In this document: positions 33,472-51,822 of the stretch, piece by piece
Layout of the letters: every line of letters starts with the position of its first letter
How positions within the stretch are numbered: position 1 is the stretch's first letter
Assembly: GCA_031409275.1 (NCBI GenBank)
Contig: JANNXA010000024.1
Location: 1 to 64,000, forward strand
Reading direction: 5' to 3'
Length of the DNA: 64,000 nucleotides
From: Planctomycetota bacterium
GTDB lineage: Bacteria > Planctomycetota > B15-G4 > SIAN01
The notes under the pieces: generated by a model
What the model was told of the DNA's origin: nothing
Seen by the model: the letters and a program-made list of their open reading frames with translations, nothing else
Database searches by the model: none
Position numbers and translations under genes: made by a program

Positions 33472-33704
33472 GAGTCCGCTGCTGCCACGTTCCACGACTC
33501 GCTCCTCGCCTGCGCCTGCGCGCGAACGCCTCGCGAACGCGCGCTGCCCCCGCTCGTGTCGACGGCGATCAGAGCAAGGCGAGGGCCACCCCGTTGCAAC
33601 CTCCCCGCGTGAGCCGCCCCTGCCGCCACGGGCGGTTGCGATGCAAGATGGCGCGCTCGCAGCGCTCCGCCTGGCGCCGCACCAACGCAAGAGAGGGAAG
33701 AAGG

Positions 33705-36700
33705 ATGCGCACCGTCCTCGCGTTCGCGGCCATCGCCGCGTCGTCCGCTTCGCACCTCGCGGCGCAACAGCCGCCGCCGGCCTTCGCGACGCAGCAGCTT
33801 TCCGATCAGTTCCTGTGCGAAGGCGCTTCGTTCGGCGACTTCAACCGCGATGGCAAGGGCGACGTCGTATCGGGGCCCTACTGGTACGAGGGACCCGACT
33901 TCGCGAAGCGCCACGAGATCGCCGACCCCGTCGCCTACGACCCGCTCGGCTACTCGAAGAACTTCTTCGCCTTCCCGTTCGACTTCGACCGCGACGGCTG
34001 GCTCGACCTCTTCTTCGTCGGCTTTCCCGGCGAGCGCGCCTGGTGGGCGCAGAACCCGAAGGGCGAGGAGCGACGCTGGGTCGAGCACGACGTCTTCGCG
34101 ACCGTCGACAACGAGTCGCCCGCCTTCACCGACGTGACCGGCGACGGCCAGCCCGAGCTCGTCTGCATCAGCGGCGGCCGCTGGGGCTACGCGACGTTCG
34201 ACGCGAAGGAGCCCGCCAAGCCGTGGACTTTCCACGCGGCGTCGCCCGACCTCGGTCTGCAGCGATTCACGCACGGCCTGGGTCTCGGCGACCTGAATGG
34301 CGACGGCAAACCCGACCTGCTCGAGCGCACCGGCTGGTGGGAGCAGCCGAAGTCGCTGGCCGGCGATCCGCTCTGGACCCGGCACGACTTCCTCTTCTCC
34401 GCAGGCCACGGCGGCGCGCAGATGCTGGTGGACGACGTCGACGGCGATGGCGATGCCGACGTCATCTCGAGCCTGAACGCCCATGAGTGGGGCCTCTCCT
34501 GGTTCGAGCAGGTGAAGGACGCGAACGCGGCGATCACCTTCCTCGAACATCGCTTGATGAACTCGCCGACCGACCCGCATCCGAAGGACGTCTGCTTCTC
34601 CGAGCTGCACGCGTTGGCGCAGGCCGACATCGATGGCGATGGCCTGAAGGACTTCGTCACTGGCAAGCGCTTCTGGGCGCACGGCCCGACCGGCTCACCG
34701 GGTGCCGGCGATCCGGCGGTCCTCTACTGGTGGCAGCTGGTGCGCACGACGGCGGGCGGATCGGCCGGCCAGAGCGGCGCGGCGACGTTCGAACCGCATC
34801 TCATCGATGACGCGAGCGGCGTCGGCGTGCAGGTCGTCGCCGGCGACCTCAATGGCGACGGCAAGTGCGACGTCGTGGTCGGCAACAAGAAGGGGACGTT
34901 CGTCCACCTGCAGGTGACGGACTACGTCGATCGGGTCAAGCAGATCCTCGAGGAGAAGCGTCGCGAGCAGGAGAAGGCGCGCGGCGGGATCGTGCCGCAG
35001 GCGGCCACGACGCCGCGCCTCCACCCCGGCCGCGACGACGGCACGCTGCCGCTCGGGCTCGACGGCAAACCGCTCAACACCGACTTCGAGACGGGCGACC
35101 TGCGCGACTGGATCGCCGAGGGCGACGCCTTCGAAGGGCAGCCGATCCGCGGCGACTCACCCAAGGCACGCAGTCGCGAGTCGAGCCTCCACGACGGCGA
35201 CTGCTGGATCGGCGGCTACGAGAAGTTCGGTGACGATCGCCAGGGGACGCTGCTCTCGGCGCCGTTTCGCGTGACGCAGCCCTTCGCCAGCTTCCTGATC
35301 GGCGGCGGTCCGCACCCGACCACCGTCGCCGAGCTGCTGCGCTGCGACGCCGCAGGCGCGCCGCTCGACGCGCCGCCCTTCTTCCGCTGCTTTGGCGCGG
35401 GCTTCGAGTCGCTGCAGCCGATCGTCGTCGACCTTTCGCGCGAGCAAGGCAAGGTGATCCGCATCCGCCTCACCGACGCGCAGGGTGGCCATTGGGGGCA
35501 CGTCAACTTCGACGACTTCCGCGTGCACGCGAAGCGCCCGGAAGTGAAACGGCCGCCGGGCGTGCCGCTGATCCTCGAGCCTGATCCGCCGATCGCCAAT
35601 GGACTGGCACCGCAGGACGCGGCGAAGGCGATGAGCGTCGGGAACGGCTTCCACGTCGACCTCGTCGCCGCCGAGCCCGACCTCCATCAGCCGATCGCGC
35701 TGTGCGTCGACGCGAAGGGGCGCCTCTGGGTGGTCGAGGCGCACAGCTACCCGCAACGCGAGCCCGAAGGGCAAGGCAAGGACATCGTCCTGGTCTTCGA
35801 GGATCGCGACCTCGACGGGCGCTTCGAGACGCGCACCGAGTTCATGCAGGGGCTGAACCTCGTCTCCGGCCTCGAGGTCGGATTCGGCGGCGTCTTCATC
35901 GGCGCCTCGCCCTACCTCCTCTTCGTGCCGGACCGCAACGACGACCTCGTGCCTGACGGCGAGCCGGAAGTGCTGCTCGATGGCTGGCACTACGAGGACA
36001 CGCACGAGACGCTGAATGCCTTCGCGTGGGGCCCTGACGGCTGGCTCTACGGCTGCCACGGCGTGTTCACCCACTCGCGCGTCGGCAAGCCGGGCACACC
36101 CGACGCGCAACGCGTGCCGCTGAACGCCGCCGTCTGGCGCTACCACCCCCAGCGCCGCGATTTCGAGATCTTCGCGGAAGGGACCAGCAACCCTTGGGGG
36201 CTCGACTGGAACGACCAGGGCGAGGCGTTCATCAGCGCGTGCGTGATCCCGCACCTCTTCCATCTGGTGCCCGGCGGCCGCTACATCCGCCAGGCCGGCG
36301 GCCCGTTCAATCCCTACACCTACGTCGAGATCGACACGATCGCCGACCACCCGCACTATCCCGGCAACGATCCGTGGGGTGCCAACGGTCGCAGCCACGC
36401 GTTCGGTGGCGGCCACGCCCACTGCGGCGCGCTGATCTACCTCGCCGAGCAGTTCCCCGCCGAGTACCGCAACTCGATCTTCATGGGGAACATCCACGGC
36501 AACCGCGTGAATCGCGACCTGCTCGAACCCGACGGCTCCGGTTACGTCGGCCATCACGGCGCCGACTTCCTGCTGGCCAACGACAAGTGGTTCCGCCACA
36601 TCGCCAGCCGACTCGGCCCCGACGGCTCGATCTACATGATCGACTGGTACGACGCGCAGGCGTGCCACCACACCGACGACAAGATCTGGAATCGAACGAA

Positions 36701-39059
36701 CGGCCGCATGTACCGCGTGAGCTACGCGGCCGAAGGCGCGCCGGCGGCGGAACGACTGCCGGTCAACGTGCCGGCGATGGCCGAGAACGCGCTGCTGCGC
36801 GCGCAGGCCGACGCGAACGAGTTCTGGGTGCGCCGCAGCCGAGTCGAGCTGCAGCAACGCGGGCTCACTGCGAGTGGCGTCGCCACCGCCGAGCAGCTCT
36901 TCACGCTGCACGCCGATCCCACGCGTCGGCTGCGCGGACTGTGGCTGCTGCACGCGTGCGCGAAACTGCGGGACGAGCTGGCGCTCGCAGAGCTTCAGAA
37001 GGACAGCGACGCTCACGTCCGCGGCTGGATCGTCCGACTCCTGGCCGAAGACCACCAGGTGAGCGCGGAGGCGTTGGCGCAGTTCACGAAGCTGGCCAAG
37101 GACGATCCCTCGCCGATCGTGCGCCGCGAGATCGCCTCGGCACTGCAACGGCTGCCGCTCGAACAGCGCTGGGCCCCGCTCGCCGCGTTGCTCGCCCACG
37201 GCGAGGACAAGGACGACCGCAATCTGCCGGCGCTCTGCTGGTACGCGCTCGAGCCACTGGTGGGTGCCGACCCGGCGCGCGCGTTCGCACTGCTGCCCGG
37301 CATCGCGCACGAATCGCTGCACGAGCTGGTGATCCGCCGCGCCGCAGCCGATCCGCGCTGCCACGACGCGCTCATCCTCGCGCTCACGTTCCTGCCGGAG
37401 CCCGGCGCGCAGCGCTGGCTGCTCGACACGATGCACGGCGAACTCGAGGAGCAGCGCGGCCTCGCCACGCCAGCGGGCTGGCCGGCCGTCTACGCGAAGC
37501 TGAAGGCGCAGCCGGAGACTGCGCGCGCGGCCTTGCAGGTCGCGCTCGACTTCGGCGATCGCTCGGCGGTGCCGGAGCTGCGCGCCGCCGCCGCCGAGAA
37601 GGGCGCCGAGATCGAGTGGCGACGGCAGGCGATCGCGGCGCTCGCCCAGCTGAAGGACGGCGAGTCGGTCCGCGGCCTGATCGAGCTGATCGGCGAGCGC
37701 GAAGTGCGCCGCGACGCGCTGCGCGCGCTGGCGAGCTTCGACGACGGCACGATTCCGATGCTGGTGCTGCTCGGCTACGAGCAGTTCGACGCCACCGAGC
37801 GGCGCGAGGCGATCGACACGCTCACCGCGCGCGTCGAGTGGGCGAGGTTGCTGACCGTCGCCATCGGCGGCGGCAAGGTGGCGCGCGGCGAGTTGCACGC
37901 CACCGCGCTGCGCCGCATGCGCGATTTCAAGGACAAGGACCTCGACACGCTGATCGCCGCCAACATCGGCCTCGTCCGCGACACTCCCGAAGAGAAGCAG
38001 AAGCGGATCGCCGAGCTGAAAGCGGGACTGACCGCCGATGCGCTCGCCCGCGCCGACCTCGAGCACGGCCGCGCGCTCTTCGCCGCCACCTGCATGAAGT
38101 GCCACGCGCTGCTCGGCGTCGGCGGGAAGATCGCCCCCGACCTGACCGGCTCGAATCGCGCCGATCTCGATTACCTGCTGACCAACGTGATCGACCCGAA
38201 CCAGGTGATCGGCAAGGATTACCTGGTGACCAACGCCTTCCTGAAGGACGGCCGCATCGTCAGCGGCATCGTGCTGCGGGAGAACGACAGCGCCGTCACG
38301 TTGCAGGCGGAGAACGACGTCGTGACGGTCGCGCGCGCCGATCTGCAGTCGCTCAAGCCGAGCAAGGTGTCACTGATGCCGGAAGGGCAGCTCGACACCT
38401 TCGCGCCCGACGCGATCCGCGACCTCATCGCCTACCTGCAGAGCGGCTCGCAAGTGGCGATGCAGGCAACGGCGGCGACAGCCCCTTACCTCTTCGACGG
38501 CAAGAGCCTCGCGTTGTGGCGTGGCGACCTCGCGCTCTTCAGCGTGGAGAGCGGCGAGATCGTCGGTCGCACGACGACCGGCATCGACCACAACGCCTTC
38601 CTCCTCTCCGATCTCGTGGTGGGTGACTTCGCGCTCTCGCTCGAGGTTCGCCTCGTCGGCGACGCGGGCAACAGCGGGATCCAGTTCCGCAGCGTGCCGG
38701 TCGGCGACGATCCGTTGCGCTTCGAGATGAAGGGCTACCAGGCCGACATCGGGCCGGGCTGGTGGGGCAAGCTCTACGAGGAGCTCGGCCGCGCGATCCT
38801 CTCCGAGGTTTCGGGCGAACCGCACGTCGTGAAGGATGGCTGGAACCGCTACGAGATCGTCGCCACCGGCGGTCGCGTGCGCACCCGCATCAACGGCCAT
38901 GTGACCACCGACCTCGACGATCCGGAGGGTGCGCGGCGCGGGCAGATCGCGCTGCAGATCCATTCGGGCGGACCGACCGAGGTGCGCTTCCGGAAGCTCG
39001 AACTGGTGGTCGATCCGCCGGCGCTGCCGGCCGTGGGCGTCGACGCAGGAGCACGGTGA
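33705..39059 (+). CDS. PVC-type heme-binding CxxCH multidomain protein (FG-GAP repeats + beta-propeller dehydrogenase-like + HEAT + cytochrome c + DUF1080)
   Basis: Signal peptide; repeated GDFNRDG/GDLNGDG motifs; AAEPDLHQPIA...GRLWV, DTHETLNAFAWGPDGWLYG; HEAT-like helices; CMKCH...PDLTG...SLMPEG; C-terminal GNSGIQFRS...IALQIHSG. Confidence 0.9.
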   Translation: MRTVLAFAAIAASSASHLAAQQPPPAFATQQLSDQFLCEGASFGDFNRDGKGDVVSGPYWYEGPDFAKRHEIADPVAYDPLGYSKNFFAFPFDFDRDGWLDLFFVGFPGERAWWAQNPKGEERRWVEHDVFATVDNESPAFTDVTGDGQPELVCISGGRWGYATFDAKEPAKPWTFHAASPDLGLQRFTHGLGLGDLNGDGKPDLLERTGWWEQPKSLAGDPLWTRHDFLFSAGHGGAQMLVDDVDGDGDADVISSLNAHEWGLSWFEQVKDANAAITFLEHRLMNSPTDPHPKDVCFSELHALAQADIDGDGLKDFVTGKRFWAHGPTGSPGAGDPAVLYWWQLVRTTAGGSAGQSGAATFEPHLIDDASGVGVQVVAGDLNGDGKCDVVVGNKKGTFVHLQVTDYVDRVKQILEEKRREQEKARGGIVPQAATTPRLHPGRDDGTLPLGLDGKPLNTDFETGDLRDWIAEGDAFEGQPIRGDSPKARSRESSLHDGDCWIGGYEKFGDDRQGTLLSAPFRVTQPFASFLIGGGPHPTTVAELLRCDAAGAPLDAPPFFRCFGAGFESLQPIVVDLSREQGKVIRIRLTDAQGGHWGHVNFDDFRVHAKRPEVKRPPGVPLILEPDPPIANGLAPQDAAKAMSVGNGFHVDLVAAEPDLHQPIALCVDAKGRLWVVEAHSYPQREPEGQGKDIVLVFEDRDLDGRFETRTEFMQGLNLVSGLEVGFGGVFIGASPYLLFVPDRNDDLVPDGEPEVLLDGWHYEDTHETLNAFAWGPDGWLYGCHGVFTHSRVGKPGTPDAQRVPLNAAVWRYHPQRRDFEIFAEGTSNPWGLDWNDQGEAFISACVIPHLFHLVPGGRYIRQAGGPFNPYTYVEIDTIADHPHYPGNDPWGANGRSHAFGGGHAHCGALIYLAEQFPAEYRNSIFMGNIHGNRVNRDLLEPDGSGYVGHHGADFLLANDKWFRHIASRLGPDGSIYMIDWYDAQACHHTDDKIWNRTNGRMYRVSYAAEGAPAAERLPVNVPAMAENALLRAQADANEFWVRRSRVELQQRGLTASGVATAEQLFTLHADPTRRLRGLWLLHACAKLRDELALAELQKDSDAHVRGWIVRLLAEDHQVSAEALAQFTKLAKDDPSPIVRREIASALQRLPLEQRWAPLAALLAHGEDKDDRNLPALCWYALEPLVGADPARAFALLPGIAHESLHELVIRRAAADPRCHDALILALTFLPEPGAQRWLLDTMHGELEEQRGLATPAGWPAVYAKLKAQPETARAALQVALDFGDRSAVPELRAAAAEKGAEIEWRRQAIAALAQLKDGESVRGLIELIGEREVRRDALRALASFDDGTIPMLVLLGYEQFDATERREAIDTLTARVEWARLLTVAIGGGKVARGELHATALRRMRDFKDKDLDTLIAANIGLVRDTPEEKQKRIAELKAGLTADALARADLEHGRALFAATCMKCHALLGVGGKIAPDLTGSNRADLDYLLTNVIDPNQVIGKDYLVTNAFLKDGRIVSGIVLRENDSAVTLQAENDVVTVARADLQSLKPSKVSLMPEGQLDTFAPDAIRDLIAYLQSGSQVAMQATAATAPYLFDGKSLALWRGDLALFSVESGEIVGRTTTGIDHNAFLLSDLVVGDFALSLEVRLVGDAGNSGIQFRSVPVGDDPLRFEMKGYQADIGPGWWGKLYEELGRAILSEVSGEPHVVKDGWNRYEIVATGGRVRTRINGHVTTDLDDPEGARRGQIALQIHSGGPTEVRFRKLELVVDPPALPAVGVDAGAR

Positions 39060-40062: not shown

Positions 40063-42315
40063 TCATGGCCGATCGCTGGTCGCGCAGCGAATCGTCGTTT
40101 CCATGACCGGTGCCAGCATCGTCAACGATGCCGTGATCGCGAGTCCCATTGAAGCGTCGGGTTGGCGCCGCATGGCCGCGGAAGTGCCCCCCTTCGCAAC
40201 GCGATGGCTCCAGTCGACATGCCACTCGCCCTCGACGCGCTCGACCGCGATCGACTCGGTCCACTCCTGCGCATTCCCCAGCGCATGCCGCAGCCCGAAC
40301 TCCGAGATCGCGTTCGCAGCGCAGTCGTCGACGCGCTGCAGGTTGGCGTAGTCGTAGCGGTAGAGCAGGCCGACCGCCTTCGCGTCGACCACCTCCGGAG
40401 CCGGTCCGGGCGGCGGGAAGAGCGTCGCAAGCGGCGCCGTCTCGTCGCCCCACGGATAGCGATGGCCCTTGGTCCCACGCGCCGCCTTCTCCCACTCGAA
40501 CATCGTCGGCAAGCGCTTGCCCGCCCACTCGGCGTAGGCGACCGCCTCCGCGAAGGTGAGTCCAACCACCGGCAGCCGCGCCCATTCGGGATCGAGGCCC
40601 CACTGCCAGGAACGGGGCCGTTCGAGCGGCCTGCCCTCCGCAGCGCTGTCGGCGAGGAAGCGCTCGTACTGCTCGCACGAAACCTCGTTCTCGTCGATCC
40701 AGAAAGTCGGCTCGTAACGCTCGGGGTCGTAGAAGCGCGCGCCATCGTCGGGAAGCGCGAAAACGAACGGCCCCGCGGCGACGTCGACCATGCCGCGGTG
40801 CACGACGGCGACCGGGCGAATCCACGCATGAACGGCCACGTCGCCACGCGCGAAGGCGCGCGTCAGTTCGGCGAAGCCGACCCCCTCCTTCTCGACGACG
40901 ATGCGCCAAAGTCCCGGTTCGACCTCGACGTCGGCGAGCGGCACCTTGCCGATGGCGATGGCCTGTTCGAATCGACCGGTGACGGGATCGATCTTGCGAA
41001 GCGAAACGCGCGCGCCTTGCGCCGCGGCGTTGCCGGTGATGGCGAGGTGCGCCTTCGCAGCCGCGACGACACGCCGCTCGCGCCAAAGGAACAACGCCGC
41101 CAGCAACGCGGCACCACCGACCGCCCCGAGCAGCCACTCGCGATGCTGGCGCGTCCAGAACGCCAATCGTCGCGTGAAAGGGGGCGGGCTGGCCTCGATC
41201 GCCTCGTAGCTCAGGAAGTGGCGCAGGTCGCGCGCGAGATCGCCGGCGCTGGCGTAGCGGTGCTCCGGTTTGCGTTCGAGCGCGCGCAGGCAGATGGTCT
41301 CGAGGTCGCGCGGCACGCGCGACTCGTCGTCGCGAATCGACGCCGGAACGGCCGAGGAGATCGCTTCGAGCACTTTGTCGCGATTGGGTCCGTCGAAGGG
41401 ACGACGCAGCGCCAGCATCTCGTAGAGGAGAACGCCCAGCGACCAGAGGTCGCTCGCTGGGCCGACGTCGTCGCGCCGGCCGCTGACCTGCTCGGGGCTC
41501 ATGTAGTGCGGCGTGCCGACGAGGTCGCCGTCCAGCGTGATGGTGTCGTCGGCGCGATCGATGGCGAGCCCGAAGTCGAGGAGCTTCGGCTGCCCGTCGG
41601 CATCGAGCAGCACGTTGTGGGGTTTCAGGTCGCGATGGATGACCCCGCGCTGATGAGCGTGGTCGAGCGCGTCCGCGAGTGCCGCAATCAGCTCGGCCAC
41701 GCGCCGGAACCATCCGCGATCGAGCATCGGTGAGCCGCCGGGACTCGCGCCGTGGCGGTCCTTCTGCTCCTGGATCAGCTCGCCCAGCGTGCGACCGGGA
41801 ACGAACTCCATCGCGTACCAGCGGAGATCGCCTTCCTGGTGGCTCTCCAGGATCTTCACGATGCCTGGATGGTCGAGCCGCGCGGGCGCGCGCGCCTCAC
41901 GTTCGAACCGTTCGTTGCGGCCGCGCCGTGACGATCCGGCCTGCGGGAGGACCTTGATGGCGACGTCGCGCGGCAGCGAGATCTGACGCGCGAAGTAGAC
42001 GCGCCCCATCCCGCCTTCACCAATCATGCGGACGACCTGGAAGTCGCCGAGCCGCTGCCCCACCAGCGCATCGCTGGCCTTGCCGGTCGCGTCGTCCTTC
42101 GCCCGCCCCAAAAGCGCGCGCACGTCGAGCAGTTCCTGCAATCCCTGGCGCAGCGCCGGACGGAGGCGCTCGGGTTGGCGCGCGACGAAGGCCTCGAGTC
42201 CGACGCTGTTCTCCTCGACCTGCCCGTCGTCGAGGGCGCGGGAGAAGGCCAGCACCAGCGGCTCGATCGCAGGATCGGAAGGCGGCGAGTCGTCGTTGGA
42301 GAAGGGCTCGGCCAC
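40063..42315 (-). CDS. Ser/Thr protein kinase with TM segment, PEGA-like linker and FGE-sulfatase (SUMF1) domain
   Basis: IGEGGMGRVY, VAIKVL, HRDLKPHN, DFGLA, GTPHYMSPEQ; KRLPTMFEWEKAARG...YPWG...GNAQEW; GTG start inferred. Confidence 0.9.
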   Translation of the reverse strand: MAEPFSNDDSPPSDPAIEPLVLAFSRALDDGQVEENSVGLEAFVARQPERLRPALRQGLQELLDVRALLGRAKDDATGKASDALVGQRLGDFQVVRMIGEGGMGRVYFARQISLPRDVAIKVLPQAGSSRRGRNERFEREARAPARLDHPGIVKILESHQEGDLRWYAMEFVPGRTLGELIQEQKDRHGASPGGSPMLDRGWFRRVAELIAALADALDHAHQRGVIHRDLKPHNVLLDADGQPKLLDFGLAIDRADDTITLDGDLVGTPHYMSPEQVSGRRDDVGPASDLWSLGVLLYEMLALRRPFDGPNRDKVLEAISSAVPASIRDDESRVPRDLETICLRALERKPEHRYASAGDLARDLRHFLSYEAIEASPPPFTRRLAFWTRQHREWLLGAVGGAALLAALFLWRERRVVAAAKAHLAITGNAAAQGARVSLRKIDPVTGRFEQAIAIGKVPLADVEVEPGLWRIVVEKEGVGFAELTRAFARGDVAVHAWIRPVAVVHRGMVDVAAGPFVFALPDDGARFYDPERYEPTFWIDENEVSCEQYERFLADSAAEGRPLERPRSWQWGLDPEWARLPVVGLTFAEAVAYAEWAGKRLPTMFEWEKAARGTKGHRYPWGDETAPLATLFPPPGPAPEVVDAKAVGLLYRYDYANLQRVDDCAANAISEFGLRHALGNAQEWTESIAVERVEGEWHVDWSHRVAKGGTSAAMRRQPDASMGLAITASLTMLAPVMETTIRCATSDRP

Positions 42316-42482
42316 GTAAGGGGAAGATCCGCGGAACGGGGTGTCACGACCGGCGCAGGCGACGTCTAAGCGCAGCCGGCTGCCGGGCGCAACTTGGAGC
42401 TTTACCGCACGCCTGTCACGACCGAGGATCGCGATGACCACCGGAGCGCCGCCCCCGGGCGCCCATCGCCGGAGTGCCCATC

Positions 42483-43745
42483 GTGAGAAAAAGCGTCTTC
42501 CTCTTCGCGACCCTCGACACCAAGGGCCATGAGGCGGCCTTCGTGCGCGACGTCCTGCGCCGCCTGCGACTCTCCGTGAAGCTCGTCGACACCGGCTCGC
42601 TCGGCACGCCGACCGTGCGACCCGACGTGAAGCGCGAGGCACTTTTCGCAGCGGCCGGGACGACGCTGGCGGCCGTCGTGGCGCGTGGCGATCGCGGCGA
42701 GGCGGTCAACTTCGCGGCCGCCGGCGCGGCGGAGTTGGCGCGACGCGCCTTCGCGAAAGGTGAGCTGGCAGGAGTGATCGCGCTCGGCGGTTCAGCGGGC
42801 ACGACCATCGGCACGGCCGCGATGCGCACGCTGCCGATCGGAGTGCCGAAGCTGATGGTCAGCACGCTCGCGGGGACACCGCAGGCGGGCGACTACGTGG
42901 GCAGCTCCGACGTGCTCATGATGAACTCGGTGGTCGACGTGCTGGGCATCAACCGCATCAGCGCGACGGTCCTGACGCGCGCAGCGCAGGCGATGGCGGG
43001 CATGGCGCGCGGCAAGTTGCCGAAGGCGTCGAAGCGCGCGAAGCCGCTGGTCGCCGCGTCGATGTTCGGCGTGACGACTCCATGCGTCGAGCGGGCCAAA
43101 GCGCGCCTCGAGGCGGCCGGCTGCGAGGTGCTGGTCTTCCACGCGACCGGCAGCGGCGGCAAGACGCTCGAGCAGCTCGCGCGCGACGGGATGCTGGCGG
43201 GGGTGCTCGACGTGACGACGACCGAACTTGCCGACGAGCTCGTCGGCGGAATGCTCACCGCCGGCAAGTCGCGCCTCACCGCGGCCGGCGAACGCGGGAT
43301 CCCGCAAGTGGTGAGCGTCGGTGCGCTCGACATGGTCAACTTCTTCGCGGCCGAAACCGTCCCCGAGCGCTTCAAGGAGCGCAAGTTCCACCGCCACAAC
43401 GCCAACGTCACGCTGATGCGCACCACGGCCATGGAGAACGCCGAGCTCGGCGTCGAAGTCGGCCGCAAATGCGCCGCGGCAACCGGCCCATGCGCCATCT
43501 TCCTGCCGAAGCTCGGCGTCTCGGCACTCGATCGCGCCGGGCAGCCGTTCGACGATCCAGCCGCTCGCCACGTCCTCTACGACAACATCGAGGCCAACTG
43601 CGGCAGCGTCCCGGTCCACGAGCTCGACTGCCACTTGAACGACCCGGCGTTCGCCGACGCGATGGCCGATCAGCTGTTGGCGTTCATGAAGATGGGCGCG
43701 AAGTCGGCTGCGAAGCGGGCATCGCCTGCTCGACGCCGGCGCTGA
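42483..43745 (+). CDS. Tm-1-like ATP-binding domain protein (UPF0261)
   Basis: TLDTKGHE, GGSAGT, LPIGVPKLMVST, SMFGVTTPCV, VFHATGSGG, DVTTTELADE, GALDMVNF. Confidence 0.92.
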   Translation: MRKSVFLFATLDTKGHEAAFVRDVLRRLRLSVKLVDTGSLGTPTVRPDVKREALFAAAGTTLAAVVARGDRGEAVNFAAAGAAELARRAFAKGELAGVIALGGSAGTTIGTAAMRTLPIGVPKLMVSTLAGTPQAGDYVGSSDVLMMNSVVDVLGINRISATVLTRAAQAMAGMARGKLPKASKRAKPLVAASMFGVTTPCVERAKARLEAAGCEVLVFHATGSGGKTLEQLARDGMLAGVLDVTTTELADELVGGMLTAGKSRLTAAGERGIPQVVSVGALDMVNFFAAETVPERFKERKFHRHNANVTLMRTTAMENAELGVEVGRKCAAATGPCAIFLPKLGVSALDRAGQPFDDPAARHVLYDNIEANCGSVPVHELDCHLNDPAFADAMADQLLAFMKMGAKSAAKRASPARRRR

Positions 43746-43898
43746 CCGCCGCGATCGGAACGGCGCGATCGAGAGCTCGATCACGTTCGTCAGCGAGATC
43801 CCCTTCGACGCGCGCGGGTCGAGTGCGCGGCCGATCGAACGGAGCACCCGCAGCGCGTGGTGGCTCTCCCCCTCCGCCGGATCGGGGGCTCGCGCGGC

Positions 43899-44785
43899 TC
43901 ATCTCCGCTTGATGGGCGCCGGCGCGACGAACCAGTGGTAGCCGTAGACGTCGCTGAACTAGAGGCGCTCGCAACGCTGCGCGATCCAAGCGCGGAATGC
44001 CTCCGCCTCGCGCGGCGCATCGGCGGGCAGGTAACGCTCCATCCGCACTCGAGCGAGGTCGCCGTCGGGCACTTCGTCGGCGAGCGTCCGCTTCAGTGCG
44101 ACGAGGCCGGGCGCATCGCGCTTCTCGCGGAGCAGCCATTCGATCTGCTCGAAGAGCACCGGCTTGCGGTAACTGACCATCGAACTGCCACATCCAGATC
44201 AGCGTGTTGAGGAAGACCTGGCGCGCGCTGTCGGTCATCTGCGTCGGATCGCTGGCGAAGCCCCACATGAACCGGTTGCCGTGGCGGCCCCGCGCGCCCG
44301 AGTTGGGCCCCTTCGAGTTGGTGCCGCTGGAGATCACTTCGGCGTCGGGCGTGTCCTCGAAGCCCAGCGGATCGGAGACGAGGCCGTAGTCGACCGTCTT
44401 GCCGAGCTCGCCCTCCTGCACCTTCCCTGCGGTCAGCGTCGCGGGCAGATCGCGGCCAGCGTGCCAATCGCGGTAGCCCCCGGGCGTGGCCATCTCGGAC
44501 GTTTCGATCTTCGGCGCGAGCGGTGCATGAGGATCGGGTGGTCGAGGCGCATCCCGTGCGCCTCATGGCCGAGGCAGAGTCAGAGCCAATCGAGCTTGGT
44601 GTGGTGCTGCACGCCGCCCGCCATGGCGCCGAGCATCACGATCGGTTTGCGAAACTCGGGCCCGCGCTTGCAGTCGGCCTGGTCGATCGACGGGTTCTGC
44701 GCATCCATCGGGTAGAGGCGCTTGCCATCGCACACCACGACGTCGAACGACGCGGCGGCCGCGACGAGTTGATCGCGCCCGTCGG
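43899..44785 (-). pseudogene. Fragmented gene for a candidate selenoprotein (W-L-U-L-C-L), with a 1-nt frameshift, a probable deletion and an internal TAG
   Basis: Frame A ...KPIVMLG...TKLDWL-TGA(44582-44580)-LCLGHEAHGMRLDHPI; shift near 44529; frame B GLVSDPLGFEDTPDAEVISSGTNSKG...GRHGN.FMWGF...VFLNTL; frame C RMERYL...RAW...RL-TAG(43961-43959)-FSDVYGYHWF. Confidence 0.65.
44544..44564 (-). promoter_or_regulatory. Putative bacterial SECIS hairpin
   Basis: GAGGCGCA-CGGGA-TGCGCCTC, a perfect 8-bp stem starting 16 nt after the in-frame UGA; loop starts at +24 with G in loop position 2. Confidence 0.55.
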
Positions 44786-44815
44786 GGCCGCGGCGGCCCA
44801 TGCACCGTTCGGGCA

Positions 44816-44938
44816 CGCGACGCGCAACAGCTCGGGGGCTGCGCGATCGAAGAGCTCGGCGAGCGCGGCGGGCGTGCCAGCGCGGCGGAACTCGACGAAG
44901 AGCGCTTCGAGCGAACGAGGGAGGGTCGGCTTCGACAT
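44816..44938 (-). pseudogene. N-terminal remnant of an ECF-type sigma-70 factor
   Basis: Strong SD AGGAGG, then MSKPTLPRSLEALFVEFRRAGTPAALAELFDRAAPELLRVA; similarity stops where sigma region 2 (AEDxxQ) would begin. Confidence 0.55.
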
Positions 44939-44974
44939 TTCGCCCCTCCTTGCCGCCAACGCCGTCAGCGTTAC

Positions 44975-45140
44975 AGCCGGCGCCAACCTGCCACCTGCCG
45001 CGTCCGGCCGACTCCGGAGGCCGGCGCCAACAAGTCCTCGGCCGACTCCGGAGGCCGGCGCCACCCATCGGCTGTCGCGACTCGCGCCCTCACTCCGGTG
45101 CCGCCGGGCCGCGTCCGGCCGACTCTGGAGGCCGGCGCCA
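44975..45140. repeat. Cluster of REP-like palindromic repeats
   Basis: GGCCGACTCYGGAGGCCGGCGCCA at 45006-45029, 45040-45063 and 45117-45140, plus partial AGCCGGCGCCAAC at 44975-44987. Confidence 0.8.
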
Positions 45141-45145
45141 CCAGT

Positions 45146-46876
<1,731 letters not shown>

Positions 46877-49881: not shown

Positions 49882-51822
49882 TCACTCTTCGCGCGGCGGC
49901 ACGACGCGACGTCGCTCGCCCGCGACCAGCGTCAATTGCTGGGTCCTCTTGCGGCCATCGTTGTCGATCCACTCGAGCGTGACGGCGCCGGCCGGCACGA
50001 ACAACTCGACCTCCGACCGAATGACGTTTTTCTTCGGATCCGCGTAGGCGCTCCCGCACTTCGCGAGGCAGACGCCCTCCGCGAGGACCCGCACGCCAAC
50101 GGCGTGGCTGACACCCGGGTTCTCCTCGCCGTCGAGCACGGCATCCGCGACCGGAGAGGGATCCACTTCAAGGATCGCCGCCTTGCCGACGCGTGCCGCA
50201 ATCGTCGAGGTGCCGCGCGCCTGTACGACGAAGCCGCGCACCAGCGCGACCTCGCTCTCGCCGGCGAAGACGAGGACGTCGTAGGTGCCGGGTTCGAAAC
50301 CCACTCGCTGAAGCTCGAGTCCGTTCTCGCGCTGCTCGAACCGCTCCGCGCGATCGAGCTGTGGCACCTGCGAGCCGTCCGGGCGAAAGAAGCGGACCTC
50401 GCGAACGGCCCGCTCCGCGCCGGCCTCGTCATGCGCTTGCACCACCACCCGCTGCTGCAGCTCGACACGGACCACCACCTCGCCGGAGCTGACTCGTGCC
50501 TTCACCGGTTCCCGTGTCGCCAGCGATTCGTCGAGCGACGTGCCGGCCAGTGTCAGCACCGTGCGATTCGTCGCACCCCGAAAGCGGAAGCGCCCCTCCT
50601 TGTCGGTGGCGACGCTGGCCATCCACTCGACCGTTCCATCCTTCTCGATGAAACGCGTTCCGACCGTCCCAACGACCGGAGCGTCGTCAGGCCCGACCAG
50701 CCGGCCAACGATCTCGAGGCCGCGCTCGACCACCAATTCGAGCCACGCGGAGCGCGCCCCTTCGCGCACTTCGACCCATCCGCTGGCCGGACCATGGCAG
50801 GCGCCCGCCGCAGCGCCGCGCTCCTCGGCATCGGCCGCGAAGATCGCGAATCCGCTGGCGACGTCGGGCCAGACGAAGCGGCCGTCGCCGTCGGTGACGA
50901 TCCTGGCCCCCGACCAGCGCATCGCCCCGTAGATCGGCTCGGCTTCGCGCGCGGCGCGATCGGCAGCGGCGGCCCCGAGTTCGAGCGGCACGCAGCGGTG
51001 CCAATCCACCGCCGTGTCGGGAACCGGCACCCCGTTCGAATCGACCACCCTTCCGCTCACGAGCGGGCCGCCGCGCAGCTTCCAGCGCTTCACGATCCCC
51101 TCGCCAGCCGTGAAACGCATCGTCACGACGTCGCAATCGAGCAGCGCAAGCCCTTCGGTCAGTTCGACCTCGAGTTCGCGGTCGGTCGGCACGTCGGCGA
51201 TCAACGCCTCGCCTCGCGCGTCGGTGGTCGCTTCCACCACGAAGCGCACCGCGCCGATCCGTTCGAGCAGCCGCACCGTGACGCCCGACGCGGGGCGGCC
51301 ATCCGCCTCCAGGACGGTGGCGCGCAGCCGCGCCGGTCGCGTGAGCTGGATCACGAGCGGTTCGACGTCGGTGCGGCCGAGTTCCTGGCTGGCGACGGCG
51401 CGCGGCGCGTAGCCCTCCGCCGCGATCACGAGCCAATCGTCCTCCGCCGCCGCGAGCGCGAAACGCCCGTCGTCGTCGCTGCGCCCTTCGACCCGCATCC
51501 GCTGCAGCGACCAGACGTCGCGGCGCAGCATCCCGCCGTTGGCGGACGCCGGCCAGCCGATCGGCGCCTCGGCCAGCGCGATGCCGGTCGCCGCATCCAT
51601 GACGCGACCGTATCGCTGCGTCGTCACGCGCGTCGCGGTGCGCGCGGCCTCGCTGCTCGCCGGCGTCGCGACTTCGTCCGGCGCCGCGTCGTACACCGGT
51701 GCCTGGCGAACGACCGGTTCGAGCGACGGCCTCTCACGCTGCCACCAGGCGACGAACGCAGCGATCCCGGCGGCAGTCACCACCACCGTCACGGCGATCG
51801 GCAGCAGTCGCACCGCTCGCAT
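49882..51822 (-). CDS. Membrane-anchored carboxypeptidase-regulatory-like repeat protein
   Basis: N-terminal TM; repeated GRV.D..G.P...V / TD..GRF motifs. Confidence 0.75.
   Translation of the reverse strand: MRAVRLLPIAVTVVVTAAGIAAFVAWWQRERPSLEPVVRQAPVYDAAPDEVATPASSEAARTATRVTTQRYGRVMDAATGIALAEAPIGWPASANGGMLRRDVWSLQRMRVEGRSDDDGRFALAAAEDDWLVIAAEGYAPRAVASQELGRTDVEPLVIQLTRPARLRATVLEADGRPASGVTVRLLERIGAVRFVVEATTDARGEALIADVPTDRELEVELTEGLALLDCDVVTMRFTAGEGIVKRWKLRGGPLVSGRVVDSNGVPVPDTAVDWHRCVPLELGAAAADRAAREAEPIYGAMRWSGARIVTDGDGRFVWPDVASGFAIFAADAEERGAAAGACHGPASGWVEVREGARSAWLELVVERGLEIVGRLVGPDDAPVVGTVGTRFIEKDGTVEWMASVATDKEGRFRFRGATNRTVLTLAGTSLDESLATREPVKARVSSGEVVVRVELQQRVVVQAHDEAGAERAVREVRFFRPDGSQVPQLDRAERFEQRENGLELQRVGFEPGTYDVLVFAGESEVALVRGFVVQARGTSTIAARVGKAAILEVDPSPVADAVLDGEENPGVSHAVGVRVLAEGVCLAKCGSAYADPKKNVIRSEVELFVPAGAVTLEWIDNDGRKRTQQLTLVAGERRRVVPPREE

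Follow-up and report, generated by a model that had tools for sequence, protein, structure and literature searches.

DsbC, DsbG, CcmG, TlpA and the periplasmic peroxiredoxins are envelope reductases fed by DsbD or ScsB, and have thioredoxin folds with a C-x-x-C motif. Selenoproteins have been gathered in a catalogue of 119 families (PMC13188914, Table 1), in which the U-x-C motif belongs to two entries, a thioredoxin-like protein and a membrane transporter, and the amidotransferase entry carries GxUxG. The bSECIS model given in the Fig 2 legend of that paper combines a stem of 4-16 bp, a loop of 3-9 nt with a G in its first two positions, a spacing of 16-37 nt and an MFE of -7.5 or lower. A real selenoprotein family that is apparently uncatalogued, with an unusual active-site architecture, is met here as a dead copy in the window, a 64,000-nucleotide stretch of planctomycetotal DNA.

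Translation of the minus strand of the window reads ...HHTKLDWL*LCLGHEAHGMRLDHPI, with the TGA at 44582-44580. This bears out the initial annotation, which had placed a TGA in TKLDWL-U-LCLGHEAH, with protein-like sequence onward, and had named no strand (Table 1). Past LCLGHEAHGMRLDHPI the reading moves to another frame (GLVSDPLGFEDTPDAEVISSG...GRHGN..WGF) and then back to the first. Compared with the orthologue from the same genus (78-89% DNA identity), the window copy has lost its first 85 codons, which hold the signal-like stretch and the first strands. It also carries 1-nt and 293-nt deletions, a TAG codon and, in the middle piece, substitutions at conserved sites, and one conserved Trp is changed; the annotation was thus right to call the copy disrupted. 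The order GGT ... gene ... UPF0261 has been kept while the locus shrank from about 8 kb in its intact form to 1.4 kb in the window. The 42-codon remnant lies upstream in the window, in the place of the lost 5' end, and its parent gene lies downstream of the intact orthologue; its ECF label is presumptive, by resemblance, and Pfam gave no match.

Table 1. Features of the broken copy and its flanks, in window positions
Feature	Position	Strand	Remarks
In-frame UGA, presumed selenocysteine of the U-x-C motif	44580..44582	(-)	Homologues have TGA or Cys here
Cys at +2 of the U-x-C motif	44574..44576	(-)	Kept in 28/29 phylum loci and 102/107 motif-covering database representatives
Bacterial SECIS-type hairpin	44544..44564	(-)	8-bp stem; loop CGGGA at 44556-44552; 23 nt past the UGA
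Surviving 5' piece of the gene	44530..44762	(-)	Equivalent to codons 86-163 of the orthologue from the same genus (89% DNA identity)
Middle piece	44171..44529	(-)	Holds GLVSDPLGFEDTPDAEVISSG and GRHGN..WGF motifs; 1-nt deletion near 44530 shifts the frame
3' piece beyond the 293-nt deletion	43899..44170	(-)	Junction 44171/44170; terminal TGA 43899-43901
TAC>TAG nonsense mutation within the conserved motif L-Y-F-S-D	43959..43961	(-)	
Remnant, 42 codons resembling an ECF-sigma-type gene start	44813..44938	(-)	74% over 35 aa
UPF0261 gene, flanking, convergent	42474..43745	(+)	Syntenic with the intact locus; outside the system
gamma-Glutamyltranspeptidase (GGT) gene, flanking	45146..46876	(-)	Syntenic with the intact locus; outside the system

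The lesions were found letter for letter in public contigs from four runs. Contigs of runs X1 and X2 cover 43397-45026 without differing letters or gaps and those of X3 and X4 cover parts of it, all four runs belonging to one study and X1 and X2 possibly representing the source DNA of the window. Because public contigs carry the same lesions, the window copy is a pseudogene rather than an assembly slip, and makes no full protein; assembly error was ruled out by the X1 and X2 contigs across 43397-45026. No intact paralogue was found in the host genome (5.59 Mb, 69% GC, 93% complete).

Elsewhere in that genome, a weak match (E 3e-8) to the C-terminal helical part of the family, with a TAG inside, lies at C17:9647-9832 (L060). 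Between the GGT gene and the pseudogene, a 26-nt GC-rich motif stands three times (starts 45007, 45041 and 45118; window 45007-45143). It has no other copies within 2 mismatches in the genome, variant public contigs overlie the region, and the three copies may mark a rearrangement point. Neighbouring genes in the window encode an ordinary 1821-aa FG-GAP/DUF7133/HEAT/cytochrome c protein (33594-39059), an ordinary Ser/Thr kinase with an FGE-sulfatase domain (40063-42642) and an ordinary carboxypeptidase-regulatory-like repeat protein (49882-51822).

When the middle piece was used as query, 5 of 60 other genomes contained relatives, and all seven non-self loci have TGA-x-Cys about 120-150 codons past a start, even at 22-30% identity. 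A profile search gave matches in 41 of 401 genomes of the phylum, some of them weak C-terminal matches alone. TGA-x-Cys stood at one column in 28 of 29 phylum loci (the 30 returned by the profile minus the window's own), in contexts as divergent as PYS-U-QCL, GFG-U-TCL, HHG-U-LCL and GYI-U-ICM, and the motif was lost in the remaining one. Across all species, a pattern scan with a bias to the DWL subfamily returned 67 loci, with Cys in 46, TGA in 19 and no motif in 2; one of its two patterns requires a Cys codon, and eight of the loci had been found before. Bacteroidota contributed 42 Cys, 1 TGA and 1 partial locus without the motif, Planctomycetota 16 TGA, 3 Cys and 1 without the motif, Gemmatimonadota 1 TGA, and the other two loci 1 Cys and 1 TGA. 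These relatives point to Planctomycetota as the phylum of the window. In total, TGA occupies the column in 42 other distinct sequences, and apart from it the frame is open in nearly all of them. As first expected, the UGA aligns to Cys: homologues have TGA or Cys there, not Trp, Arg or Gly, and a few have lost the motif. The best 150 database representatives comprise 102 with C-x-C, 5 without the motif and 43 that start just past it; the last group, and the closest intact gene, whose downstream part is a 326-aa 'hypothetical protein' in NCBI, confirm the suspicion that gene callers split the family.

In 300 genomes sampled from the phylum of G423 (Bacteroidota), no match was found besides the centre genome, and the Cys form is thus sporadic there. 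A quick unrooted tree places the Cys forms within the Sec forms, the state having changed five times or more, and a Sec ancestor of the family is plausible. The Bacteroidota TGA member L115 (a Rikenellaceae record) stands in a SusC/SusD locus of a genome with selA and has a fused DsbD_N. It has no G-loop hairpin in a contiguous-stem test and groups with the Cys forms on the tree, and it possibly represents a Cys-to-Sec change or an atypical SECIS. Seven members (L054, L064, P0008, P0009, P0043, P0073 and P0151) have lost the motif and kept the remaining family sequence. Since these keep the fold sequence, some function survives without U/C-x-C, and on their sequences they are candidate non-catalytic binding proteins.

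The window hairpin consists of the stem GAGGCGCA/UGCGCCUC and the loop CGGGA starting at +24, and is present in the MFE structure, as expected from the perfect 8-bp hairpin first reported. With one further G-U pair its energy is -14.4 kcal/mol, and its stem of 8-9, loop of 5 with G second and spacing of 23 lie within all four constraints of the model as set out in section 5 of PMC13188914. Alone, the hairpin was no better than chance in this GC-rich genome (z = -0.82 for an 83-nt stretch); 39 of 200 shuffles folded as well as that stretch, and synonymous-codon shuffles gave p = 0.09. It is convincing only across homologues.

Hairpins were compared in 89 distinct sequences (43 TGA and 46 Cys forms) by a strict contiguous-stem test. 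Of the 43 TGA forms 24 had a contiguous G-loop hairpin at or below -7.5 kcal/mol, as against 1 of 46 Cys forms, and a G stood at +25 in 42 of the TGA forms but in only 4 of the Cys forms. The mean hairpin energy was -7.4 in TGA forms versus -3.5 in synonymous shuffles, and -0.6 versus 0.0 in Cys forms, which are AT-richer. In an ungapped alignment of the TGA forms, with the structure taken from the window copy and kinship making the sequences non-independent, 70% of cells were paired, with 46 double-sided changes. None of 500 shuffles scored as high and slid controls reached 25-48% of cells; two pair-counting measures were unexceptional (101 and 266 of 500). Under the strict test 19 of 43 TGA forms miss -7.5 kcal/mol, some of their hairpins being bulged or weak, and the hairpin residues are also protein-constrained (A-H-G). 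The earlier description of the hairpin as SECIS-like thus holds in that it is conserved and covarying across TGA forms; taken singly, the window hairpin does not exceed chance, and the element is weak or missing in some TGA forms.

The selenocysteine genes to which the initial annotation had pointed were all four present in the host genome, with selA, selB and selD over curated cut-offs and selC found as tRNA-Sec. This tRNA is the sole one with a TCA anticodon, and genes near the window copy end in TGA. The selD gene adjoins selA (C40:252211-254558) and has an in-frame TGA (CAG-U-AAK) with its own hairpin; tRNA-Sec shares contig C40 with selD, and selB lies on C29. All 28 genomes with a verified TGA form had a selA match, versus 285 of 401 over the cut-off in the phylum, kinship among genomes making this count non-independent. 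A spot check of five genomes found selA in both TGA carriers, in one Cys carrier, and no full match in two Cys carriers. The lone Bacteroidota TGA form of the pattern scan is in a selA genome, and a Cys-form Flavihumibacter is without selA. The selA frequency among the sampled phylum genomes in itself suggests a large and under-surveyed selenoproteome in the phylum. From these comparisons, the conserved in-frame UGA very probably encodes selenocysteine.

Intact members of the family are 416-640 aa long, the first seven 416-539 aa and those with a fused domain up to about 640 aa. By a crude heuristic, a start followed by a hydrophobic signal-like stretch was found in 82 of 88 members; the other six comprise fusions at the N-terminus, loci cut by a contig edge, a single partial gene and a single near miss. 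AlphaFold2 models were confident (pLDDT 95.8 and 95.4), and in them one domain spans the UGA. In a fold search, residues 5-240 of the models matched class I glutamine-amidotransferase-like structures (Z 11.9-12.5; rmsd 3.0-3.5 A over 171-187 residues; 9-12% identity), with GMP synthase, ThuA-like, PhzE and HisH tied at Z 12.4-12.5. A mostly helical C-terminal domain is predicted after the first ~240 residues.

The residues that serve catalysis in this fold were then compared. Residue 88, which follows strand 84-87 and was placed at the elbow from DSSP rather than by residue-level superposition, is Gly in 55, Ala in 26 and Ser in 7 of 88 members, and Cys is not among the five commonest residues at positions 89-92. 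A His-x-Glu after the last strand was not found, columns 214-216 past W-G-F holding A/S/G, A/G and S/D; these columns would be the counterpart of the GATase motif. By DSSP of the models, U-x-C lies on a predicted strand after the elbow helix. Glu186, Gly191, Lys195, Gly212 and Asn230 are invariant; both Cys columns are invariant by construction, since the alignment omits three loci that lack the motif and one that is short.

A sequence search of the PDB returned designed TIM barrels and weak matches only, and no significant score came from aligning profiles with GATase and ThuA sets. ThuA-like (PF06283) did not match any of seven full proteins at E<=0.1, with an hhalign probability of 0.1-0.2%. 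NCBIfam gave no match for these seven and two single weak unrelated matches among 88 cores, and a Pfam scan of the seven gave one sub-threshold match. Named records and top Atlas clusters of the family are called 'hypothetical protein', and clusters at 50% identity number 419 at E<=1e-30 and 1659 at E<=0.001. No description of the family or locus was found in the literature, mostly open-access, where supplements could list a member; nor was the family met in PMC12013277, PMC13745706, PMC4807772, PMC10434189 or PMC13326102, whose supplementary tables could likewise list one. The annotation's proposal of an uncharacterised selenoprotein family agrees with the lack of a family match in Pfam, NCBIfam or the 119 families as tabulated in the catalogue.

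Gene neighbourhoods differed between the two forms. The usual order in Bacteroidota is SusC, SusD, TlpA-type thioredoxins, the family gene, a stand-alone DsbD_N gene and more TlpA, sometimes with a full DsbD or an M16 peptidase. Of 46 Cys-type loci, 45 had DsbD_N either fused to the family gene or close to it, and a C-x4/5-C pair was found in all 45 DsbD_N genes listed, most of them within 25 nt of the family gene. The same 46 loci had TlpA in 39, SusC in 27 and SusD in 21, which are undercounts, made by seed BLAST. Among Sec-type loci DsbD_N was found in 12 of 47, 11 as fusions; flanks extended only ~1.5 kb in 28 of the 47, and at least two C-x4/5-C domains that are plain to see escaped the profile. 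Thirty sampled neighbours (of 67 picked) of 18 mostly Sec-type, mostly Planctomycetota loci had no shared context. The DsbD_N fusion is C-terminal in several subfamilies and N-terminal in another. In P0040, P0100, P0128 and P0156 the family domain is joined to DsbD_N and to domains that are TlpA-like, hydrolase-like or esterase-like, labels that we presume from motifs. For one Cys form and its DsbD_N neighbour, complex prediction scored 0.48 versus 0.02 for the best control, with contact agreement of at least 73% and partner pLDDT of at least 83. The prediction was graded weak: of 157 solved pairs 116 attain its mark, as do 2 of 215 mismatched ones, yet scores of 0.60 or less take in only 18 of the 157 solved pairs and both passing mismatches.

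Taking the models and neighbourhoods together, we slightly favour the view that the family protein is an exported Sec/Cys reductase on a GATase-like fold, recharged via DsbD_N. SelB would read the hairpin and insert Sec, and the N-terminal signal would drive export. The selenolate would then attack an oxidised substrate in the old amidotransferase cleft, and Cys+2 would resolve the adduct to a selenenylsulfide, which the C-x4-C of the fused or adjoining DsbD_N, fed by DsbD/TlpA proteins, would re-reduce. In Bacteroidota the substrate would probably be a disulfide-bearing peptide or another oxidised sulfur compound, taken up through the SusC/SusD pair encoded alongside. Jointly, substrate attack, resolution by Cys+2, re-reduction by DsbD_N and a SusC/SusD-imported substrate seem a little better than an even bet. 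Against this, DsbD_N is found in just a quarter or so of Sec-type loci (12/47), and some function survives loss of the motif. A broader proposal, of a selenoenzyme class not described before, is more tentative: an amidotransferase scaffold minus its catalytic triad may have become an exported Sec/Cys oxidoreductase with its own DsbD_N shuttle, ancestrally Sec in Planctomycetota and Cys-converted in Bacteroidota, where it would form the catalytic core of a SusC/SusD-TlpA-DsbD locus that imports and reduces oxidised sulfur substrates.

The reductase proposal was weighed against other functions for a genuine selenoprotein. Side chains at i and i+2 of one strand face the same way, and U and C are so placed on the predicted strand; a bond between them would be strained, and metal binding would be equally natural. 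U-x-C and the nearby His114 (78 of 88 members) and His120 (85 of 88) might accordingly bind a metal or metalloid, with DsbD_N and TlpA merely keeping the ligands reduced, although we consider this unlikely. A part in metal storage, handoff or sensing after TonB-dependent uptake, likewise unlikely, would suit the ECF-FecR genes found with SusC/D in some loci, and one UxC selenoprotein in Table 1 of PMC13188914 is a Cu/Zn transporter. Metal-resistance genes, however, do not recur among the neighbours, His114 is replaced in Y/V subfamilies and its codon lies within the SECIS stem, and the invariant Glu186, Lys195 and Asn230 with the large second domain suggest a substrate-binding enzyme.

Unlikely, too, is a hydrolase or transferase (of the peptidase, amidase or deglycase kind) whose Sec/Cys nucleophile has been relocated. 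All 88 members have Gly, Ala or Ser at the elbow and no His-x-Glu lies past the last strand, at positions that were themselves inferred. Moreover, two linked Cys/Sec residues and a dedicated DsbD_N partner suit redox cycling better, and characterised selenoproteins are mostly redox enzymes, according to PMC13188914. In its favour are the fold neighbours, which include glutaminases, ThuA-like proteins and gamma-glutamyl peptidases, the M16 peptidase genes in 9 loci, and a forced global alignment that sets Cys108 on the GATase nucleophile (probability 0.3%, not significant).

The protein might instead be a Sec oxidoreductase acting as an oxidase or isomerase of disulfides in exported proteins, or using another electron donor, with DsbD_N incidental in Sec forms. 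Most Sec-type Planctomycetota genes do stand alone, and the weak complex prediction is in keeping with this. Nevertheless, the DsbD_N fusions at either terminus and the TlpA fusions in P0040 and P0100 (labels presumed from motifs) indicate a reducing pathway, and we regard the oxidase or isomerase reading as improbable. Finally, it is very improbable that the UGA is a true stop, between two genes or as a recurrent nonsense change, or is read as Trp or Gly in an alternative code: despite the other stops and frameshifts of the window copy and a hairpin not significant alone, the 42 further TGA sequences are mostly otherwise open, the UGA falls inside one predicted folded domain, Cys rather than Trp or Gly substitutes in continuous ORFs, and nearby genes end in TGA with tRNA-Sec as the sole TCA-anticodon tRNA. 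On TGA/Cys conservation, the tRNA set and the single folded domain, the alternative-code and two-gene readings were rejected.

The dead copy in the window matters solely as a pointer to the family. Neither the selenoprotein catalogue nor the HMM libraries checked include this large and diverse family, which is annotated as shortened 'hypothetical' fragments; it matters because databases split its genes at the UGA. The family places selenocysteine in U-x-C, within a predicted exported protein and on a fold that normally uses a different cysteine for catalysis. Since Sec marks the catalytic residue, this directs attention to the active site of a Bacteroidota protein that is so far uncharacterised. 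The family is present in cultured, harmless Bacteroidota (Flavihumibacter, Chitinophaga, Pedobacter and Flavobacterium), in which the function of the SusC/D-TlpA-DsbD loci is directly testable.

The family resembles catalogued bacterial selenoproteins, as they are described in the tables and legends of PMC13188914, in its in-frame UGA, Cys homologues, G-loop hairpin 16-37 nt downstream and host selABCD; unlike them, it matched none of the 119 families in NCBIfam and Pfam scans. It differs from both UxC entries, thioredoxin-like Sec.2 and the SO_0444 transporter NF033936, in having no domain or HMM match to them and a predicted GATase1-like fold. With the amidotransferase selenoprotein NF004836 it would share selenocysteine on a glutamine-amidotransferase-type scaffold; however, the GxUxG of that protein is of the nucleophile type, whereas U-x-C in the family lies off the elbow, and NF004836 had no NCBIfam match among the 88 members. 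The models liken it in fold to the class I GATase-like superfamily, including the GAT domain of GMP synthase (2ywb), HisH (4gud), ThuA-like proteins (4jqs/1t0b) and a Planctomyces GATase1-like protein (3rht). Unlike class I GATases, it is without the elbow cysteine or His-x-Glu, carries U-x-C on the strand after the elbow helix, and adds a predicted export signal, a further, helical domain at the C-terminus and a DsbD_N partner. Like the envelope reductases fed by DsbD or ScsB, it is a predicted exported dithiol or selenol-thiol protein encoded with DsbD_N, DsbD and TlpA genes, but it combines a predicted GATase1-like fold and U/C-x-C with a stand-alone or fused DsbD_N of its own.
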